The notes under the pieces: generated by a model
Told to the model about the DNA's origin: nothing
The model's input: the letters and a program-made list of their open reading frames with translations, nothing else
Database searches by the model: none
Shown here: positions 5,975-16,325 of the stretch, in pieces
Numbering within the stretch: position 1 is the first letter of the stretch
Layout: every line of letters starts with the position of its first letter
Virus record (IMG/VR): IMGVR_UViG_2529292981_000039
Strand: one strand, 5' to 3'
DNA: 16,325 bases
Source of the DNA: a virus
Taxonomy: Duplodnaviria > Heunggongvirae > Uroviricota > Caudoviricetes
Position numbers and translations under genes: made by a program

Positions 5975-6529
5975 CTATTTAATACTCAGCAACTGCTCGA
6001 CGGTCATATTTTTAATTGCGCTTCGGTTTACAAGAGTCCAGCCCTGTTTCTCCAGATAAAGGCGGAAAGTGTCCAGGGTACAGACGAGAGCGCCATCAGG
6101 AACGGTTTCAGTGAATTCGACGTTGCCGAATTTGTCGAAGCGAACAACCAGAGTGCGCCCATCGCCCGGAATGATTTTGTTTGTGGGAGTGGTATTATTC
6201 TGGCGTAGCTCTGCTTCCATGCGGTCGAACTCAGCGATGTAGGCCTCTTTGAATGCAGCGGCTTTTTTGCCAGTGAAACCCATCACCAGGAAAACGAAGC
6301 CGTTTTTGGTGATTTGGTACATTGGGAGTTTGCGCCCGGTTGAGTCGGTGTATTCACTTGGCTTAAAATTAAGCTCAGTGAATTCTGAGGAACATTCCAG
6401 AGCTTCAATTTTTTGAATGACGTTTTTATGCAGCTTGCGGAAAAACTCTGCAACTGCAACAGACGTAGTGACAGCACGACCATTTTCGATGGTTACGTCA
6501 GGGTGAGAAAGGGTAGGGATAGTAGCCAT
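5975..6529 (-). CDS. Rha-family phage regulatory protein (antirepressor-like), 184 aa from MATIPTLSHPDVTIENGRAVTTS...
   Basis: The N-terminal region has the Phage_pRha signature (GRAVTTSVAVAEFF.K.H.NV...GFVFLVMGFTGKKAAAFKEAYI..F..ME). The track ORF extends in frame to 6823, but that extension is G/P/S/T/R-rich and contains a terminator-like hairpin, so I call the start at 6529. Confidence 0.7.
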   Translation of the reverse strand: MATIPTLSHPDVTIENGRAVTTSVAVAEFFRKLHKNVIQKIEALECSSEFTELNFKPSEYTDSTGRKLPMYQITKNGFVFLVMGFTGKKAAAFKEAYIAEFDRMEAELRQNNTTPTNKIIPGDGRTLVVRFDKFGNVEFTETVPDGALVCTLDTFRLYLEKQGWTLVNRSAIKNMTVEQLLSIK

Positions 6530-6703
6530 GATGGCAGCCTCTAGTGATAAGTTGGTAAACTCACCACCGGAGGTGCAAATCTCATGGGTGGTGAGACGTA
6601 CAGGGTTTGCACTACCGGTCACTAGAGAATCCGGCCCGCCCGAAAACGGCCCCATACGCCCCACCATAATCTGAATGTGGCTGCGCTTTACGCATAAAAA
6701 AAC

Positions 6704-6726
6704 CGCTTTGGCGCGGTTATGCGCTC
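6704..6726 (-). terminator. Candidate Rho-independent terminator on the minus strand (aaccgc-gccaaa-gcggtt followed by T7)
   Basis: 6-bp GC-rich stem, 6-nt loop and a run of seven T on the minus strand, read directly from the sequence. Confidence 0.5.
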
Positions 6727-7234
6727 TAGTGATCATCGGGGTGCAAATCCCGGCACCCGTTTTATGAGGTGCAGGTGCACTATAATTCCACCCGTTCTGG
6801 TTTTCAATAGCTACATCCAACATTTTCTCTCACCTTTCATCACTGAAGTGAACTTTGTTGATGCGGTGCCTGGTGCCTCCAGGTGACGTTAACCAGTTAA
6901 CAATTAACGCCGGATAATCCACCCATAACACTGATGCTTTTAACTGTGCCGCGTGCGCTCAGCCGCATTCACCGCATCACAAAATTCACTTTAAAAAGGG
7001 GCGGCAGGGCAGCCACGGAGTAGAACTGATGCCGCCAAGACTACACACAGCAATGTCGTTATTTACAACCGGAGGCGCACTCCCACCATTTAAATTTAAC
7101 AGACAAGACCGACTCTTTATGGATATCGGAAATGCGCCTTCGTGTTGTGCCCGGTTTTATTTCACCACCTCCGGGCTTTGGTGGCCTCGGCTATACCCCT
7201 ACAGCAAGAATATTGAATTAATCCAATAAATGGT

Positions 7235-7693: not shown

Positions 7694-8113
7694 TTACTCC
7701 GGTGGGGGATTATCTTTAAGCCTGCCTCTCAAATATTTTTCTACATACTCATCGATTTCTTTTAGCCGGACTTCAAATAGCTCAATCATTCGTTGTTGTT
7801 CTGAGCCCGGTAGCTGGTTAAACAACTCAAGAAGTTTTCGTTGGGATTCATTTAACCACAATTCAGAAGATTCCTGTTCTCCAAAGAGGAGCTCAGGAGG
7901 AGATATGCCAAGTGCCTTTCCCAATACGACAGCGTCATGCACTCCAACATTTCTGCTACCCGCCTCATAGTTACCTATACGCGATTGCGTCCATCCGCAG
8001 ATTTCAGCAAGTTTTCCTTGAGATAAACCAAGCTTCTGCCTGCGCTCTTTAAGACGCATTGCAATTTTGTCATTGAGCCTACTAGCGGCAATTTTTTCGT
8101 TTTCTTTTTCCAT
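7694..8113 (-). CDS. Prophage immunity repressor (CI-like, XRE-family HTH), 139 aa, with no LexA/S24 autopeptidase domain
   Basis: HTH motif (LGLSQGKLAEICGWTQSRIGNYEAG) near the N-terminus; divergent from a cro-like gene; too short, and without a Ser/Lys dyad region, to be a self-cleaving repressor. Confidence 0.85.
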   Translation of the reverse strand: MEKENEKIAASRLNDKIAMRLKERRQKLGLSQGKLAEICGWTQSRIGNYEAGSRNVGVHDAVVLGKALGISPPELLFGEQESSELWLNESQRKLLELFNQLPGSEQQRMIELFEVRLKEIDEYVEKYLRGRLKDNPPPE

Positions 8114-8209
8114 TGCATCCTTGTATCACGAATCGTGATTTACACAAAACACAAAACAGCTTGACCATATAACACAAGATGTGTTTAAAATTGTCATCGG
8201 AGGTTTTCA
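8114..8209. promoter_or_regulatory. Divergent repressor/cro promoter-operator region: perfect 15-bp palindrome ATCACGAATCGTGAT (8125-8139), palindrome AACACaagatGTGTT (8171-8185), candidate rightward -35 TTGACC (8161-8166)
   Basis: Palindromes read directly from the sequence. GGAGG at 8199-8203 precedes the cro ATG at 8210. Confidence 0.6.
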
Positions 8210-8452
8210 ATGAACAAAATTTCAACATATCGAAAACAGCTTGGGCTGTCTCAAAGACAACTTGCTGTTCAGTTAGGGTGGATACAAAGCCGACTGGCAA
8301 ATTACGAAGCAAATTTTCGTACCCCTGGACTAGAGGAGTGCAGAAAAATTGTTTCTACCCTTAATCGGCTTGGCGCTCATTGTGGACTTGACGATGTATT
8401 CCCCCCAGACGGTAAGCATAGCGAAAACAGCATAGGAGCGGTTGATTCATGA
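8210..8452 (+). CDS. Cro-like HTH regulator (YdaS-like), 80 aa
   Basis: HTH (LGLSQRQLAVQLGWIQSRLANYE); good RBS; first gene of the rightward operon, opposite the repressor. Confidence 0.8.
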   Translation: MNKISTYRKQLGLSQRQLAVQLGWIQSRLANYEANFRTPGLEECRKIVSTLNRLGAHCGLDDVFPPDGKHSENSIGAVDS

Positions 8453-8871
8453 AAATCAGGCATGAGCACATCGAATCAGTGCTGTTAGCCCTGGCAGCCG
8501 AAAAAGGGCAGGCGTGGGTCGCTAACGCAATTACTGATGAATATCTGCGCCAGGGGGGCGGCGAATTGCCCCTGGTACCAGGCAAGGACTGGAACAATCA
8601 GCAGAATATCTATCACCGTTGGTTGAAAGGTGAAACGAAAGCGCAAAGGGAAAAAATTCAGAAACTGATCCCTGCGGTTCTGGCAATTCTTCCGCGCGAG
8701 CTGCGTCACCGACTCTGCATCTTCGATACCCTGGAACGCCGTGCATTACTGGCGGCGCAGGAAGCGTTGAGTACGGCAATTGATGCGCATGATGATGCAG
8801 TCCAGGCCGTTTACCGGAAAGCACATTTCAGCGGTGGTGGGTCGCCCGGTGATTCTGTCGTAGTGCATTGA
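8449..8871 (+). CDS. ydaT: YdaT-like protein (CII-like regulator, formerly proposed toxin), 140 aa
   Basis: MKIRHEHIESVLLALAAEKGQAWVANAITDEYLRQGGGELPLVPGKDWNNQQNIYHRWLKG... matches Rac YdaT as I recall it; start overlaps the cro-like stop (ATGA). Confidence 0.8.
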   Translation: MKIRHEHIESVLLALAAEKGQAWVANAITDEYLRQGGGELPLVPGKDWNNQQNIYHRWLKGETKAQREKIQKLIPAVLAILPRELRHRLCIFDTLERRALLAAQEALSTAIDAHDDAVQAVYRKAHFSGGGSPGDSVVVH

Positions 8872-11289: not shown

Positions 11290-11712
11290 ATGGCAAAAGT
11301 ATTTACACCAGAAGAGCGGGAAAAAATTAAAGGGCAGGTTGTTGAACTTGTACGTCTGAGCGGCCGCGAGACGTTACGGCAACTGGAAGAGAAAACAGGT
11401 GCGACAAGATATCTGATGAGTGTTCTCGCCAGAGAGCTGGTTGCCAGTGGCGATGTATACAACTCTGGTTACGGGTTATTCCCGTCTGAACAGGCGCGTA
11501 AGGACTGGCAAAACGCCCGCAAAAAACTCTCAAGGGCAAATCTGAAGAAAACATCTGTGGATGATCCGGACCTTATCTGGTCATTACCAGACGGAGAAAT
11601 ACGCCGCTACGACAGGCGTCAGAACATAATCTGTAGCGAGTGCCGGAAGAGCGAAGTTATGCAGCGCGCACTGGCGTTTTATCAGGGTAATTTTCAGGAG
11701 GTGGCACAGTGA
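11290..11712 (+). CDS. Hypothetical protein, 140 aa from MAKVFTPEEREKIKG...
   Basis: GGAGG lies 5 nt upstream of the ATG at 11290; no recognisable motif. Confidence 0.5.
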   Translation: MAKVFTPEEREKIKGQVVELVRLSGRETLRQLEEKTGATRYLMSVLARELVASGDVYNSGYGLFPSEQARKDWQNARKKLSRANLKKTSVDDPDLIWSLPDGEIRRYDRRQNIICSECRKSEVMQRALAFYQGNFQEVAQ

Positions 11713-11939
11713 GCGGGATTGACTACCAGGATTTGGCTGCTGCCAACGCTTTCCTGGCGGATGTGCGGGCAGGGGCGTTTAACGACCTTTGCGCGGCGTT
11801 TGTCAGGCACGCAAAAATTGCAGGACTGGGTGATGGCGACACTGTGACGCTTAAGGAAGCGACTGATGCGCTGCTGCACTGTGCGGAACAACTTCGCGCA
11901 CCTGAAGGCTTGGTAATACTAGCTGAATGCCCACAATAG
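11709..11939 (+). CDS. Hypothetical protein, 76 aa, GTG start
   Basis: AGGAGG lies 7 nt upstream of the GTG; start overlaps the stop of the preceding gene (coupled). Confidence 0.45.
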   Translation: MSGIDYQDLAAANAFLADVRAGAFNDLCAAFVRHAKIAGLGDGDTVTLKEATDALLHCAEQLRAPEGLVILAECPQ

Positions 11940-12034
11940 TGTTAGCGATACACATATCAATGTAGATAAATATGTATTGTGGTTAAAGTTTGTTCGACTG
12001 GTTGACGAATTCGTGAAATCCCCTAAAGATTAGG

Positions 12035-12062
12035 TTTACAAAAATAAAATTTTGCGTAAAGA
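12035..12062 (+). promoter_or_regulatory. Candidate promoter for the cargo operon (-35 TTTACA at 12035-12040, -10 TAAAGA at 12057-12062), with the palindrome ACGAATTCGT (12005-12014) upstream
   Basis: Motifs read from the sequence; the -10 is weak, so the assignment is tentative. Confidence 0.3.
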
Positions 12063-12093
12063 TGAGCGGAGTTTTAAGAGAGAGGGATACCTT

Positions 12094-12744
12094 ATGCCGT
12101 CTGAACAGAATCTCCAACCGTGTTTTGAAATCAATCCTTGTTTGGATGAAAAATCTGTTATCAATCTTCTTCAGCAATTTGCTAACGTACTTGGCGAATT
12201 ATGGTTCCATCGCCATGAGTATGATGATAACTGGATTAATGGATGTAGGGCCTATGGATGGATAAAAAACTTTCTTGTAAAAAATCATAAAAAACTCAAA
12301 GGAGTGGCGATTCTTTCAACACCTCTGAATTTTGTGTTTACCCTGAACAGGGTGCCGTTACAGTTTGTGACCGATAAACTGGATTCACCAAAAAAGAAAC
12401 ATCGCTTATGTAAAAATGATGTTGAGTGTCGTCAGTTATCTCTTTTTGAAGATGATGTTAATTTTGAACATGATGTTACATGGCGTGTTCTGGCTGAAAA
12501 ATTACCATCTGCAAATAAAAAAGATGAAGATATTGAACCTCCAACGTGGCTTTTAGCCCTGATAGGTTTTGATTCATCAAATAATGTAGTGAGTAGATAC
12601 GAATTGGTGTCTAAAGTCCATGCTCCAGTACAAGCAGCTAATACTGACGTATTGCCAGAGGCCGTGGAAACACCACCGCTGAATTTGCAGCGGCGTGTTA
12701 AGAATGCGAAAAAAGCAGATAGTGATAAATATGGAACTATTTGA
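12094..12744 (+). CDS. Unknown 216-aa protein (MPSEQNLQPCFEINPCLDEK...), first gene of the AT-rich cargo operon; no recognisable domain
   Basis: GAGGGA lies 6 nt upstream of the ATG. Visibly AT-rich compared with the flanking phage genes (judged by eye, not computed). Its 3' end overlaps the start of the HTH-peptidase gene by 14 nt. Confidence 0.6.
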   Translation: MPSEQNLQPCFEINPCLDEKSVINLLQQFANVLGELWFHRHEYDDNWINGCRAYGWIKNFLVKNHKKLKGVAILSTPLNFVFTLNRVPLQFVTDKLDSPKKKHRLCKNDVECRQLSLFEDDVNFEHDVTWRVLAEKLPSANKKDEDIEPPTWLLALIGFDSSNNVVSRYELVSKVHAPVQAANTDVLPEAVETPPLNLQRRVKNAKKADSDKYGTI

Positions 12745-13852
12745 TTCTATAGGTAATTATCGTGGTGACTGCTTAAAATTAGCTCGTCAGGCTAAAGGGG
12801 TTACGGGCGAAGAGCTTGCTACTGCTTTGGGGGTGACTCGGCAATTTATAAACAAGTTAGAGCGTGGTTATCCCCCTTCATCTCAGATGTTGACAGCTCT
12901 TGCAGATTATCTGGATGTTAAAGAGTCGTTTTTCTTCACTGGAAGGAAATCACCATTAGACAGCGAGAACTGCCATTTCAGAAGCAAGAGATCAAGGACG
13001 CAGTCCTTAACTAATAGTATTCTGGCTCGAGCTGAAATTTTGGAGCAGTTTGTAAAGTGTTTGGAAACAGAAATAGTTCTTCCAGAATTGAACTTTCCTG
13101 ATACGTCCGGATTACCTTTGAACTCCGATGAAGATATTGAAAGAATTGCCGAGGCCTGTAGAAGGTATTGGGGTTTGGGGCTGGGACCGATATCTTCAAT
13201 GGTTAATTTCGTGGAAAGTATTGGGGTTGTTGTTGCTCATGTATCTGGCGTGGATGATCGTATTGATGCGTTTACTATTAATAGTAAACGCCCATTGATA
13301 ATTAGAAATTCCGCGAAAAAGAGTGTGTGTCGATTTCGCTCAGATCTCGGTCATGAACTGGGGCATCTTGTTTTGCATGAAGGGATTATAACAGGGGATA
13401 AAATTACAGAACATCATGCGGATTATTTTTCGAGCGCATTCCTTGTACCTAGAGTTTCGTTCGTTAATGAATTTCCTAAAATGCGAGGATCGCATCTTGA
13501 CTGGAATGCACTAATTAATTTCAAAGAACGATGGAAAATCAGTCTTCGCATGTGTATTTATCGTGCTACGGTTTTGGGGCTGATTACGCCACAACAAATG
13601 AGAACGGGATTTATCCATCTAAATAAAAGAGGGACGATTAAAGGAGAGATGGGGGATGAGTTAATCCCTGAGGAAAAACCTCGCTTACTTTCCTGTGCAG
13701 TTGAATTGCTGGATATATCTTCTTGGAAGCAGATACTGGATATGTCGGGAGTGAGGGAACGCTTTGTTTCCAAAATGTTTGGAATAAGGCGCACACATGA
13801 TGATATATCGAGTAATATTGTGCCTCTTTATAGATACAAAGACTTTGGTTAA
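12731..13852 (+). CDS. XRE-family HTH fused to an ImmA/IrrE-type (COG2856-like) zinc metallopeptidase, 373 aa; an alternative ATG lies at 12704
   Basis: N-terminal HTH (LKLARQAKGVTGEELATALGVTRQFINKLERG) and HEXXH motif (SDLGHELGHLVLHEG) in a domain of the size and arrangement typical of ImmA/IrrE proteases. Confidence 0.8.
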   Translation: MELFDSIGNYRGDCLKLARQAKGVTGEELATALGVTRQFINKLERGYPPSSQMLTALADYLDVKESFFFTGRKSPLDSENCHFRSKRSRTQSLTNSILARAEILEQFVKCLETEIVLPELNFPDTSGLPLNSDEDIERIAEACRRYWGLGLGPISSMVNFVESIGVVVAHVSGVDDRIDAFTINSKRPLIIRNSAKKSVCRFRSDLGHELGHLVLHEGIITGDKITEHHADYFSSAFLVPRVSFVNEFPKMRGSHLDWNALINFKERWKISLRMCIYRATVLGLITPQQMRTGFIHLNKRGTIKGEMGDELIPEEKPRLLSCAVELLDISSWKQILDMSGVRERFVSKMFGIRRTHDDISSNIVPLYRYKDFG

Positions 13853-14031
13853 AATCATAATGGGTGCTTGAGGCTATCTGCCTCAGGCATGAACACCAAA
13901 AGGCAGATAGAGAAAAGCCCCAGTTAACATTACGCGTCCTGCAAGACGCTTAACATTAATCTGAGGCCCAATCTATGCTTCACAAACGTAGGTTAGCCTC
14001 TTACGTGCCGAAAGGCAAGGAGAAGCAGGCT

Positions 14032-14187
14032 ATGAAGCAGCAAAAGGCGATGTTAGTCGCCCTGATCGTCATCTGTTTAACCGTCATAGTGACGGCACTG
14101 GTAACGAGGAAAGACCTCTGCGAGGTACGAATCCGAACCGGCCAGACGGAGGTCGCTGTCTTCACAGCTTACGAACCTGAGGAGTAA
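14032..14187 (+). CDS. hok: Hok/Gef-family type I toxin (HokD/RelF-like), 51 aa (MKQQKAMLVALIVICLTVIVTALVTRKDLCEVRIRTGQTEVAVFTAYEPEE); the in-frame upstream extension from 13975 may be a mok-like leader
   Basis: Almost identical to chromosomal Hok toxins as I recall them; single transmembrane helix; followed by a terminator hairpin. Confidence 0.88.
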   Translation: MKQQKAMLVALIVICLTVIVTALVTRKDLCEVRIRTGQTEVAVFTAYEPEE

Positions 14188-15346: not shown

Positions 15347-15636
15347 TGGTGGATTTACGTAAAGCGGCAAAAGGTCAGATGTGTACAGTCAGAATTCCTG
15401 GCTACTGCAATCACAATCCCGAAACGTCCGTGCTGGCGCATTACAGGCTGGCGGGGACGTGTGGAACAGCGACAAAACCACACGATATGCAGGCGGCAAT
15501 TGCCTGTAGCTCGTGCCACGATTTAATCGACGGGCGGGTAAAAACCAGCGATTACACCAAAGAAGAATTGCGCCTGATGCACGCGGAGGGCGTTTTCCGC
15601 ACACAGGAAATCTGGAGGGAGAAAGGCATTCTATGA
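15346..15636 (+). CDS. ybcO: YbcO-like (DUF1364) putative nuclease, 96 aa, Cys/His-rich
   Basis: MVDLRKAAKGQMCTVRIPGYCNHNPETSVLAHYRL...ACSSCHD resembles DLP12 YbcO as I recall it; conserved Cys/His pattern. Confidence 0.65.
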   Translation: MVDLRKAAKGQMCTVRIPGYCNHNPETSVLAHYRLAGTCGTATKPHDMQAAIACSSCHDLIDGRVKTSDYTKEELRLMHAEGVFRTQEIWREKGIL

Positions 15637-15669
15637 TTTACCCAACAAATACCGGAAAAAGCGGAGAAC
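15633..15669 (+). pseudogene. 5' stub of a gene (MIYPTNTGKSGE...) cut after about 12 codons by the IS629-like insertion
   Basis: ATG overlaps the ybcO-like stop (ATGA coupling); the reading frame then runs straight into the IS left terminal repeat at 15670. Confidence 0.45.
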
Positions 15670-15723
15670 TGAACCGCCCCGGAAATCCTGGAGACTAAAC
15701 TCCCTGAGAAAGAGGTAAACAGG

Positions 15724-16050
15724 ATGACTAAAAATACTCGTTTTTCCCCCGAAGTCCGTCAGCGGGCGATTCGTATGGTTCTGGAAAGTCAGGATGAATA
15801 TGACTCACAGTGGGCGGCAATTTGTTCCATTGCCCCAAAGATTGGCTGTACGCCGGAGACTCTGCGTGTCTGGGTTCGCCAGCATGAGCGGGATACCGGG
15901 GGCGGTGATGGTGGGCTCACCAGCGCTGAACGTCAGCGTCTGAAAGAGCTGGAACGTGAAAATCGTGAACTGCGCCGCAGTAACGATATCCTTCGCCAGG
16001 CTTCCGCTTATTTTGCGAAGGCGGAGTTCGACCGCCTCTGGAAAAAATGA
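15724..16050 (+). CDS. IS629-like transposase OrfA (HTH and leucine-zipper part), 108 aa
   Basis: [60 protein letters not shown]... matches IS629 OrfA as I recall it. Confidence 0.9.
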
Positions 16051-16325
16051 TGCCACTGCTGGATAAGCTGCGTGAGCAGTACGGGGTCGGACCGGTATGC
16101 AGCGAACTGCATATTGCCCCGTCAACGTATTACCATTGTCAGCAACAGCGACATCATCCGGATAAACGCAGTGCCCGTGCGCAGCACGACGACTGGCTGA
16201 AGAGAGAGATACAGCGCGTATACGATGAAAATCATCAGGTGTACGGTGTGCGTAAAGTCTGGCGTCAGTTGTTACGGGAAGGAATCAGGGTGGCCAGATG
16301 TACAGTGGCACGTCTCATGGCGGTT
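16047..16325 (+). CDS. IS629-like transposase OrfB (DDE catalytic part), 5' portion only; truncated by the window end
   Basis: Begins [30 protein letters not shown]... in the -1 frame relative to orfA, overlapping the AAAAAA slippery run at the orfA end. Confidence 0.85.

Follow-up and report, generated by a model that had tools for sequence, protein, structure and literature searches.

RosmerTA pairs a zinc-peptidase antitoxin, RmrA, with a toxin of unknown function, RmrT; it defends Escherichia coli, and its ΔrmrA version could not be transformed (Millman 2022). The RmrT toxins are diverse by the definition of the family, and the RmrTA pair of Gordonia phage Kita countered two BASEL phages in E. 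coli (Ernits et al. 2023), while RosmerTA homologues from S. thermophilus gave weak protection. In Pectobacteriaceae, Tn-seq found rmrA and clpX to be essential only in carriers of RosmerTA, and in E. coli E101 a prophage toxin–antitoxin pair, later cited as RmrT-type, makes clpP essential (Rousset 2021). RipAB (Spr1630/Spr1629) of Streptococcus pneumoniae is likewise a Rosmer toxin–antitoxin system, linked to competence and not to phage. RipA is toxic and is neutralised in trans by RipB, ripB and clpX are essential only where ripA is present, and suppressors that fall in the DnaN pocket remove the toxicity of RipA as well as the yeast two-hybrid interaction.

The window analysed here, a stretch of 16,325 nucleotides, comes from a lambdoid prophage of the Rac-like kind in Shiga-toxigenic E. 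coli and holds an insert with two co-oriented genes. Taking the best explanation as a whole, we consider it probable that this insert is a RosmerTA-type two-gene toxin–antitoxin module, of a known family and of a subtype other than the verified one. The first gene, rmrT (12094–12744, plus strand), starts with ATG and encodes a predicted toxin of 216 amino acids; a Shine–Dalgarno-like GAGAGGG (12080–12086, plus strand), read from the sequence, lies 7 nt upstream of its start codon. The second, rmrA (12731–13852, plus strand), also starts with ATG and encodes 373 amino acids, in which an XRE helix-turn-helix (HTH) is joined to a zinc peptidase of the ImmA/IrrE (M78) type and a C-terminal helical region. 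The two reading frames overlap by 14 nt, and the PGAP annotation (NCBI) of E. coli O157:H7 ECP19-598 contains identical coding sequences for both, as WP_001138877.1 ("hypothetical protein") and WP_000418464.1 ("helix-turn-helix domain-containing protein").

In RmrA, the XRE-type HTH domain spans residues 15–67 (12773–12931, plus strand; Pfam HTH_3, E = 5.8e-13) and the Peptidase_M78 domain residues 162–279 (13214–13567, plus strand; Pfam, E = 5.6e-13). The latter contains the motif HELGH (residues 208–212; 13352–13366, plus strand), which is kept in all five lineages compared, followed downstream by Glu227; across 60 homologues, H208, E209, H212 and E227 never vary. The AF2 model of RmrA has a pLDDT of 88.8, with the linker between HTH and peptidase as the lowest-scoring part of the folded protein. 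Foldseek returned CapP (7t5t, E = 3.9e-5) and IrrE (3dti) as neighbours of the model, and CapH, ImmR and SinR as neighbours of the HTH domain. The invariance of the active-site residues, together with these fold neighbours, suggests that the RmrA peptidase is probably active.

Against the RosmerTA models of PADLOC-DB v2 (published 2022–2023), RmrA matched the RmrA model PDLC03943 with E = 5.7e-107, as well as 13 further RmrA models. It shares 30% identity over 296 residues (E = 2e-36) with the verified RmrA of E. coli OLC-716, the sequences of which were taken from Table S2 of Millman 2022. The product of rmrT matched the RmrT model PDLC03929 moderately (E = 1.4e-18, 65 bits, residues 12–212 of 216) and phrog_5786 of PHROGs with 6.6e-72, and PDLC03929 was matched by all 64 wider relatives of the gene, at best with 3e-72. 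Pfam and NCBIfam assigned this protein to no family, with no Pfam match even at E ≤ 1; no PDB sequence was matched in a profile search, and Foldseek of its AF2 model (pLDDT 77, pTM 0.70) gave no PDB match at E < 0.001. The locus combines an RmrA profile match and the M78/HTH architecture with an intact HEXXH and downstream Glu ligand and an adjacent, co-oriented small gene of an RmrT cluster. Homology of the toxin to a verified RmrT was not found, which the family definition, given the diversity of the toxins, does not demand.

These results bear on an earlier note on this DNA, made from the letters alone. The two overlapping genes that it had placed at 12094–12744 and 12731–13852 are the same open reading frames as ours and agree with PGAP, and its description of the second as an XRE HTH joined to a HELGH peptidase is borne out by Pfam. 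Its statement that the first gene carries no motif placeable in any family holds for Pfam and NCBIfam but not for PADLOC and PHROGs. The functional logic that it proposed, an upstream effector or toxin controlled by the HTH-peptidase in an AT-rich cargo operon, is that of the RosmerTA scheme. Its further view, that the pair was a candidate undescribed module and could not be matched to any characterised system, did not survive: the PADLOC run on both proteins that it had itself suggested returned RmrT and RmrA models, RmrA resembles a verified RmrA, and the pair falls within a known system, RosmerTA, an outcome of the kind that the note had named as refuting it. An undescribed defence or toxin–antitoxin system outside any characterised family, to which the lack of a Pfam or NCBIfam family for the first gene and its GenBank label of "hypothetical protein" would point, is scarcely credible now that both proteins and all relatives examined match RosmerTA models.

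The closest verified system, RosmerTA of E. coli OLC-716, stems from the same host species and is likewise made of two co-oriented genes, for a toxin of about 220 residues without Pfam domain and a 370-residue XRE-HTH and M78 antitoxin in which HELGHLVLH is conserved; its antitoxin is placed after or before the toxin. It differs in PADLOC subtype (RmrT 03935 and RmrA 03949, against 03929 and 03943 in the window) and in its toxin, which has no detectable homology to that of the window (BLASTP E = 1.9; hhalign probability 0.1–0.4% in two profile comparisons). The RmrTA of phage Kita resembles the window pair in being phage-borne and in its ImmA-type antitoxin (node D25); it defends E. coli narrowly. 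Its toxin, however, has transmembrane segments and depolarises the membrane, whereas the window RmrT lacks a transmembrane segment (maximum 19-residue Kyte–Doolittle hydropathy of 1.2).

More distant systems share parts of this architecture. The E. coli defence system PD-lambda-2 (Vassallo et al. 2022) also sets an Xre-HTH/peptidase fusion beside a toxin-like gene, but it comprises three genes, one of which encodes a HigB-like toxin while the third resembles a P4 antitoxin, and its HTH-peptidase is itself toxic. The window has two genes, with no HigB/RelE signal from Pfam in the first and hok/sok next downstream. CapP/CapH, ImmA/ImmR of ICEBs1 and IrrE/DdrO of Deinococcus likewise combine an M78 zinc peptidase, with HEXXH and Glu kept, with an XRE HTH; in these, however, protease and repressor are separate proteins that switch a downstream regulon or element, whereas here they are fused and the partner is a predicted toxin. 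Matches to the PADLOC capP and capH models are weak (1e-11 and 1.6e-3) and fall far short of those to RmrA; the annotation shows no CBASS genes for 13 kb to either side, and no ICE or repair genes are adjacent. SocB of Caulobacter crescentus is reportedly restrained by ClpXP with its antitoxin acting as adaptor, as Aakre et al. are said to have found in 2013. This restraint of SocB recalls the reliance of Rosmer toxins on ClpX/ClpP, but SocAB, a type VI system, has no reported sequence or structural relation to Rosmer proteins, and SocA is not known to have an HTH or a peptidase domain.

The insert, comprising promoter region, rmrT and rmrA, spans 11907–13861 (about 1.95 kb, no strand assigned), as delimited by a dip in GC content and by homology of the flanks. 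On the left, other prophages remain homologous as far as 11894–11906; on the right, homology to Rac-type phages and to sok resumes at 13862. The left flank carries the remnant of a truncated ead/Ea22-like gene outside the module (11709–11939, plus strand; phrog_27745; "incomplete; missing N-terminus" in PGAP), to which DNA homology stops at about 11906 and which marks a recombination scar at the left edge of the insert. The right flank, also outside the module, is a hok/sok type I toxin–antitoxin locus (13862–14187, plus strand; Rfam sok 13862–14037, hokD coding sequence 14032–14187). GC content is 0.36–0.44 across 11800–13800 and 0.49–0.53 on both sides; GC and GC3 are 0.379 and 0.290 for rmrT and 0.410 and 0.350 for rmrA, compared with about 0.50 and 0.46–0.55 for the adjoining phage genes. 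The AT-rich island described by the earlier note is thus real in both measures, and its site is as stated there, with O-like, YdaV, DUF1627 and DUF977 genes of the replication module to the left and hokD/sok and nin-type genes to the right.

The same note had proposed to check the presence or absence of the island in related prophages; most prophages that are otherwise homologous lack the module. A 100% identical insert was found in 31 of 5426 complete E. coli genomes, many of them Shiga-toxigenic strains, compared with flanks in more than 1000. A second E. coli allele (WP_001004956.1/WP_000401168.1), 41% identical, is present in 237 complete genomes, so that the two alleles together reach about 5% of the 5426. 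Among 50,697 sequenced phage genomes, megablast and tblastn detected no copy of the insert and no homologue of its first gene, and a literature search by accession and PHROG identifier gave no mention of the window proteins or their PHROGs. rmrT and rmrA are paired in all 79 IMG/VR loci (viral contigs) and in seven further lineages. Toxin precedes antitoxin with an overlap of 14 or 20 nt in five Enterobacterales lineages and likewise in Pseudomonas and Acinetobacter; toxin identities (40–71%) and antitoxin identities (57–84%) co-vary. In other prophages the slot between DUF977 and hokD holds QueH, methyltransferase or Ea22/DUF551 genes instead. The module itself occupies other slots in Proteus, in Serratia and in the second E. 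coli allele, and the Pseudomonas copy lies between IS elements outside a prophage; it moves between different prophage slots and is also found outside prophages.

Such swappable cargo, in a hotspot that exchanges accessory genes, is typical of prophage-encoded defence. It argues against a plain addiction or stabilisation system, or a stress switch like RipAB, that would keep the prophage or modulate the host without a meaningful anti-phage role, as does the discovery and verification of RosmerTA as an E. coli defence system, with a phage-borne member that also defends. The essentiality of the antitoxin and the dependence on ClpX/ClpP were, on the other hand, found in phage-free settings, RipAB is tied to competence, some RosmerTA homologues protect poorly, and the module adjoins another stabilising toxin system, hok/sok. 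We regard a role restricted to addiction, stabilisation or stress response as unlikely; addiction and defence are in any case not mutually exclusive.

Upstream of rmrT lie two tandem 33-nt promoter-like units (12000–12063, plus strand), recognised by their sequence pattern and their conservation across lineages. Box 1, GGTTGAC (12000–12006, plus strand), overlaps a −35 element TTGACG (12002–12007), which is followed by a −10-like TAAAGAT (12024–12030). Box 2, GGTTTAC (12033–12039, plus strand), lies near the predicted +1 and doubles as the −35 element TTTACA of the second unit, with its own TAAAGAT at 12057–12063. The spacing of the two GGTTGAC-type boxes is 33 nt, and the window contains a single instance of the pattern GGTTKAC-N26-GGTTKAC, where 0.00 would be expected. 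It is kept 5′ of rmrT in Proteus, Serratia, Xenorhabdus, the second E. coli allele, Pseudomonas and Acinetobacter, and in 69 of 78 IMG/VR loci, compared with one match in 865 kb elsewhere in those loci. We infer that this region is the module's own promoter and operator. A generic promoter scan had missed this conserved promoter, which cross-lineage comparison alone revealed; no intrinsic terminator was found 3′ of rmrA in the window.

The pair could also be read as a prophage induction switch of the ImmA/ImmR kind, in which the HTH-peptidase would govern the choice between lysis and lysogeny, with the first gene as an accessory regulator and not a toxin. ImmA/ImmR, IrrE/DdrO and Rir/Crh are indeed M78/XRE regulatory pairs on mobile elements, and the HTH of RmrA resembles the DNA-binding domains of ImmR and CapH. 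The prophage, however, already carries its own divergent repressor/Cro pair at 7694–8452, the operator-like boxes stand solely in front of the module itself, and the module is missing from most homologous prophages, sits in different slots in others and has a Pseudomonas copy outside any prophage. An induction switch is therefore very improbable, and a toxin–antitoxin module of the RosmerTA type remains the preferred reading.

Within the flexible, basic linker between HTH and peptidase, RmrA carries the motif C81-H82-F83-R84 (12971–12982, plus strand), which is a candidate site for autoproteolysis or latency. All 60 of 60 homologues have F83 and R84, while H82 is kept in 58 and C81 in 53 of the 60. 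IrrE cuts DdrO at L106|R107, and ImmA cuts ImmR at F95|M96 (PMC6868357), in both cases within a loop of the HTH protein; by analogy, CHFR may be a self-cleavage site of RmrA. In its HTH and ImmA-like architecture RmrA also resembles RipB, and its best NCBIfam match is the spr1629 (RipB) equivalog NF052239. Since the score of 162.3 bits lies below the 335-bit cutoff of this equivalog, RmrA is not a RipB orthologue, and the transfer to RmrA of the ClpX dependence shown in the RipAB system, and of the DnaN results, is therefore by analogy only.

As for the toxin, residues 114–118 of RmrT read QLSLF (codons 12433–12447, plus strand), which matches the consensus for binding to the β sliding clamp and is followed by an acidic, variable loop. 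The clamp-binding consensus is QLxLF/QLSLF, with QLSLF described as the "full consensus" (PMC4549789). Of the close relatives, 26 of 26 carry the motif at the aligned site, as do 34 of 64 wider ones, compared with 3.5 ± 2.0 anywhere in shuffled sequences, and E111, Q114 and L117 are among just 20 positions conserved to at least 60% across the wide RmrT family. In a distant branch the motif is degenerate ([QD]LF followed by acidic residues, or QS[ML]SLF), strict QLxLF being limited to the window's own branch. RmrT might accordingly be suspected of poisoning DNA replication by inserting QLSLF into the hydrophobic cleft of the β sliding clamp, DnaN; we put this forward tentatively, with more doubt than conviction. 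It would give the toxin a possible target in common with RipA, as a protein with a consensus clamp-binding motif would fit DnaN. Partial placement of QLSLF inside a predicted helix of the AF2 model counts against the clamp reading, and the motif could instead be structural; at least one RmrT, moreover, has membranes and not replication as its site of action. A different proposal, which we think rather improbable, would make RmrT a DNA-degrading enzyme, a nuclease of degenerate PD-(D/E)xK type, and not a clamp binder.

Two candidate observations on the toxins were discarded. QLKLDL in the verified RmrT was set aside as support for clamp binding, because a motif of this kind turns up in 12% of shuffled sequences, and D79N in the window toxin was rejected as a sign of inactivation, because position 79 is not conserved across the wider family.

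The following scheme would accommodate these features. RmrT, by comparison with its characterised relatives, would be a growth-arresting toxin that RmrA neutralises post-translationally, probably depending on host ClpX(P) as in the analogous RipB. The HTH of RmrA would bind the two boxes, covering −35 and +1, and so repress the operon. Phage infection might perturb RmrA or its ClpXP-dependent control, either through self-cleavage at F83|R84 or through competition for ClpXP, and the freed RmrT would then stop the cell before the phage is completed, protecting the lysogen population by abortive infection. A more specific version, speculative though worth stating, would have RmrT dock QLSLF in the DnaN cleft and halt host and phage replication alike, with RmrA as sensor and switch on two GGTTGAC operators, to be inactivated by cutting itself at F83|R84 once infection is sensed.

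Classification alone matters little, as a standard PADLOC or DefenseFinder run labels the locus Rosmer. Its value lies in a subtype that is common in E. coli, to which the locus offers three handles: the clamp-binding motif in the toxin, the conserved two-box promoter/operator and, in the linker of the antitoxin, the invariant CHFR. Were RmrT to prove a clamp poison, a prophage defence module of E. coli would be tied to RipA, the toxin aimed at DnaN, and the essentiality of ClpX/ClpP in Rosmer carriers would be explained; together with RipA and the recurring ClpX/ClpP dependence, clamp targeting with protease-gated release could then be a general Rosmer mechanism.

The clpP-dependent system of E. 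coli E101 (WP_001179380.1/WP_000481765.1) was considered as a possible copy of the window pair or of the second allele and rejected, since the accessions differ. At residue 46 the verified OLC-716 toxin has T where that of the window has N, and the E101 suppressor mutation is T46S; our guess is therefore that the E101 system is more likely of the OLC-716 type.

The plus-strand genes rmrT (12094-12744; 216 aa) and rmrA (12731-13852; 373 aa), which would encode a toxin and its antitoxin, both start with ATG and overlap by 14 nt, and a Shine-Dalgarno-like GAGAGGG lies 7 nt 5' of the rmrT start on the same strand. The NCBI pipeline calls the same two CDS in 100%-identical copies from E. coli O157:H7 and other Shiga-toxigenic strains, labeling them "hypothetical protein" and "helix-turn-helix domain-containing protein", respectively. 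The GC content is 0.38 for rmrT and 0.41 for rmrA versus ~0.50 in neighboring genes, and GC3 is 0.29 and 0.35 versus 0.46-0.55. The earlier note, made from the sequence alone, had placed two overlapping genes at exactly these positions, had seen an island more AT-rich than its flanks, and had read the second gene as an XRE HTH joined to an HEXXH peptidase; all of this was borne out, the last by Pfam matches to HTH_3 (RmrA residues 15-67) and Peptidase_M78 (residues 162-279), with HELGH at residues 208-212.

The same note had found the pair unplaceable and proposed an undescribed system. This is refuted, and we leave it virtually no weight, as RosmerTA models in PADLOC-DB match both proteins: RmrT matches PDLC03929 (E 1.4e-18, covering residues 12-212), and RmrA matches PDLC03943 (E 5.7e-107) ahead of 13 other RmrA models. 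In the description by Millman et al. (2022), RosmerTA pairs a Zn-peptidase antitoxin with a toxin of unknown function and guards E. coli against phages, and its antitoxin could not be deleted; Ernits et al. (2023) described one ImmA-type antitoxin hub with many unrelated toxin partners. Compared with the verified system of E. coli OLC-716 (sequences from Millman Table S2), the window RmrA shows 30% identity over 296 residues (E 2e-36), HELGHLVLH being common to both, whereas BLASTP and profile comparison detected no similarity between the two toxins. The verified pair also falls in other PADLOC sub-models (RmrT 03935, RmrA 03949). Together, these matches, the differing sub-models and the unrelated toxin place the window pair, as far as sequence classification goes, in a catalogued RosmerTA subtype apart from the verified one. 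Every defining feature of RosmerTA that can be tested on sequence is present, and we are highly confident that this is a Rosmer-type toxin-antitoxin module, which would work as other RosmerTA pairs do. Three other identities were tried and rejected, namely the RipB equivalog (162 bits for the window RmrA versus a cutoff of 335), PD-lambda-2, and a CBASS regulator. As a classification this is routine, but the subtype is common in E. coli, and three specific handles for testing the mechanism of the family emerged from the analysis.

All relatives of RmrT are about 200 aa long; they fall into ~30 close clusters within Enterobacterales, and an exhaustive search gave 126 representative clusters. 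PDLC03929 matched all 64 family members scanned. The toxin gene precedes the antitoxin gene and overlaps it by 14 or 20 nt in Proteus, Xenorhabdus, Serratia, and a second E. coli allele, as well as in Pseudomonas and Acinetobacter. Among the IMG/VR viral contigs retrieved by an RmrA alignment, the RmrT profile matches the upstream co-oriented ORF in 79 out of 79. The identities of the two partners co-vary (toxin 40-71%, antitoxin 57-84%).

The window covers the early region of a Rac-like lambdoid prophage that has integrated beside ttcA. It runs from intR, xisR, ralR/RalA, recT, recE, kilR, a repressor/Cro pair, ydaT, and replication genes to DUF1627, DUF977, the AT-rich insert with promoter region, rmrT and rmrA, hokD/sok, and nin-type DUF1367/DUF1364/DUF1133 genes. 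On the left, DNA-level homology with other E. coli prophages is lost just past the DUF977 gene or, in a subset of prophages, at ~11906 inside a truncated Ea22-like remnant; on the right, it restarts at 13862, where the sok RNA match begins. Other prophages carry QueH, SAM-methyltransferase, or Ea22/DUF551 genes in this slot. Of 5426 complete E. coli genomes, only 31 contain the complete insert, and >1000 contain its flanks. This makes the insert swappable cargo at a hotspot, as the earlier note had supposed of the AT-rich pair. The ead/Ea22-like remnant directly to its left (11709-11939; phrog_27745; a PGAP pseudogene without N-terminus) looks like a scar of the recombination that delivered the module. 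The second E. coli allele (WP_001004956.1/WP_000401168.1; toxin 41-42% and antitoxin 57% identical to the window pair) is present in 237 of 5426 complete genomes. It belongs to the same RosmerTA subtype and, in E. coli 118UI (L011:5001-6735, L019:1602-3336), is inserted just after hokD; as the module lies 3' of hok in that allele and 5' of hok in the window, the two alleles flank the same hok/sok locus. Elsewhere, the module lies before DUF1367 (Proteus and Xenorhabdus), between the Q antiterminator and holin (Serratia), or between IS elements (Pseudomonas). An ImmA/ImmR-like switch for prophage induction would also pair an HTH with such a peptidase; it appears very unlikely here, as the prophage has an immunity region of its own and carries the module as a mobile, self-contained unit. 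A tblastn search of 50,697 deposited INPHARED phage genomes returned no rmrT homologue. The gene does have a PHROGs family (phrog_5786, E 6.6e-72) and many prophage-derived IMG/VR copies, and the module appears to be limited to integrated or defective prophages and to be missing from isolated phages.

Several further elements were observed in the window. The hok/sok type I TA locus (13862-14187; Rfam sok, 120 bits; hokD CDS) starts at the first base past the insert, and the RalR/RalA type I pair of Rac (1553-1813 and 1557-1735), in which the RalA sRNA (219 bits) is antisense to the ralR endonuclease toxin gene, makes a third toxin system within 16 kb. Close to the immunity genes, a minus-strand small-RNA trio (6584-7049) comprises C4 antisense RNA (6584-6671), isrK (6696-6772), and DicF (6999-7049); a Rha-family gene spans 5975-6823. 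Ahead of the replication genes lies a ydaS/ydaT-type pair (8210-8871), in which a "toxin YdaT family" gene comes after a Cro-like HTH gene; the module-carrying Proteus and Xenorhabdus prophages have the same pair ahead of theirs. An Rfam ALIL pseudoknot matches strongly and at full length (16005-16121, 121 bits) inside the Q-antiterminator-like DUF1133 gene (15633-16175).

Comparison of upstream regions across lineages revealed a conserved promoter for rmrT, which a generic promoter scan had missed. It consists of two tandem units of ~33 nt, each beginning with GGTTGAC. In the window, box 1 is GGTTGAC at 12000 and box 2 is GGTTTAC at 12033. Box 1 coincides with a consensus -35 (TTGACA), box 2 lies at about +1, and a -10-like AAATAT, CAATAT or TAAAGAT follows 17 nt 3' of the box 1 -35. 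The layout, with a chance expectation of 0.00, is present in all seven lineages examined and in 69 of 78 IMG/VR loci (29 distinct sequence variants), versus a single match in the remaining 865 kb of the same loci. We infer an autonomous sigma-70 promoter in which two operator half-sites, spaced by three helical turns and bound by the RmrA HTH, would cover the -35 and the start site. Such an arrangement would give autorepression, which we consider fairly probable, and would allow the lysogen to express the module whatever the state of the prophage repressor. As no terminator was found 3' of rmrA in the window, transcripts of the module may reach the hok/sok control region by read-through.

The AF2 model of RmrA is confident (pLDDT 88.8), and its closest solved folds are CapP (7t5t, E 3.9e-5) and IrrE (3dti); the N-terminal domain matches the HTH domains of CapH, ImmR, SinR, and C-protein, and the PDB copy searched held no Rosmer structure. 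RmrA resembles CapP/CapH, ImmA/ImmR, and IrrE/DdrO mechanistically, but has both parts fused into one protein. Across 60 homologues, H208, E209, H212, and E227 never vary, which makes an active peptidase probable. The linker between HTH and peptidase has the lowest model confidence within the folded part and holds an invariant C81-H82-F83-R84 followed by basic residues. IrrE cleaves DdrO at L106|R107, within a basic loop, and ImmA cleaves ImmR at F95|M96 (PMC6868357). By analogy with these sites, we propose F83|R84 as a candidate, if doubtful, self-cleavage site, at which the HTH would part from the rest of RmrA. The linker Cys-His pair C81-H82 (12971-12976) is near-invariant (53/60 and 58/60) and, speculatively, might serve as a latency "switch" by binding the catalytic zinc, or might respond to redox state or zinc, as has been reported for IrrE.

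Rosmer toxins are toxic, and in RipA/RipB, the Rosmer pair of Streptococcus pneumoniae, the HTH-peptidase neutralizes in trans from heterologous promoters, so that its effect is post-transcriptional. There, it is ripA alone that makes ripB and clpX essential; in Pectobacteriaceae, rmrA and clpX are essential only in Rosmer-positive strains; and in E. coli E101, clpP is made essential by a prophage-encoded TA pair cited by later work as RmrT-type. In the mechanism that we propose for the window pair, RmrA would repress the operon at the two boxes and, with ClpX(P), hold RmrT inactive; infection would upset this control, and the freed RmrT would arrest the cell. The trigger could be signal-activated self-cleavage of RmrA or phage proteins that saturate or inhibit ClpXP, of which lambda O and MuA are substrates. 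We lean slightly toward a real anti-phage function; a pure addiction or stress TA pair with no defense role would fit much of the data and seems distinctly unlikely to us, the two roles not being mutually exclusive.

The model of RmrT (pLDDT 77, pTM 0.70) shows a soluble alpha/beta protein whose basic C-terminal tail is disordered. RmrT contains no hydrophobic segment, unlike the membrane-active toxin of phage Kita. Conserved polar residues are few in the family, with D44 alone near-invariant, which argues weakly against an enzyme. Residues 114-118, QLSLF, form a "full consensus" beta-sliding-clamp-binding motif (PMC4549789), followed by an acidic, indel-rich loop. Counting Q[LIMFY]x[LIMF]F or Q[LIMFY]x[LIMF]x[LF], a clamp-type motif occurs at the aligned site in 26/26 close and 34/64 wider relatives, versus 3.5±2.0 anywhere in shuffles, and in no other protein of the window; only 20 positions reach 60% conservation or more across the whole family, E111, Q114, and L117 being three of them. 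In S. pneumoniae, mutations in the hydrophobic pocket of DnaN suppress RipA toxicity and abolish the RipA-DnaN two-hybrid interaction. DnaN, engaged through QLSLF, is our preferred, albeit tentative, guess for the RmrT target, which would possibly make RmrT a clamp toxin similar to SocB and RipA. In a distant branch, the motif is reduced to [QD]LF plus acidic residues or QS[ML]SLF, and part of QLSLF is predicted to be helical; it may therefore be purely structural. The tail itself (residues 192-216, 12667-12744; pLDDT <50, pI 9.8) conserves L198-x-R-R and a C-terminal G-T-[VI] in the Enterobacterales subfamily, and the rmrA start overlaps the stretch encoding it; it could be a degron or an antitoxin-binding peptide.
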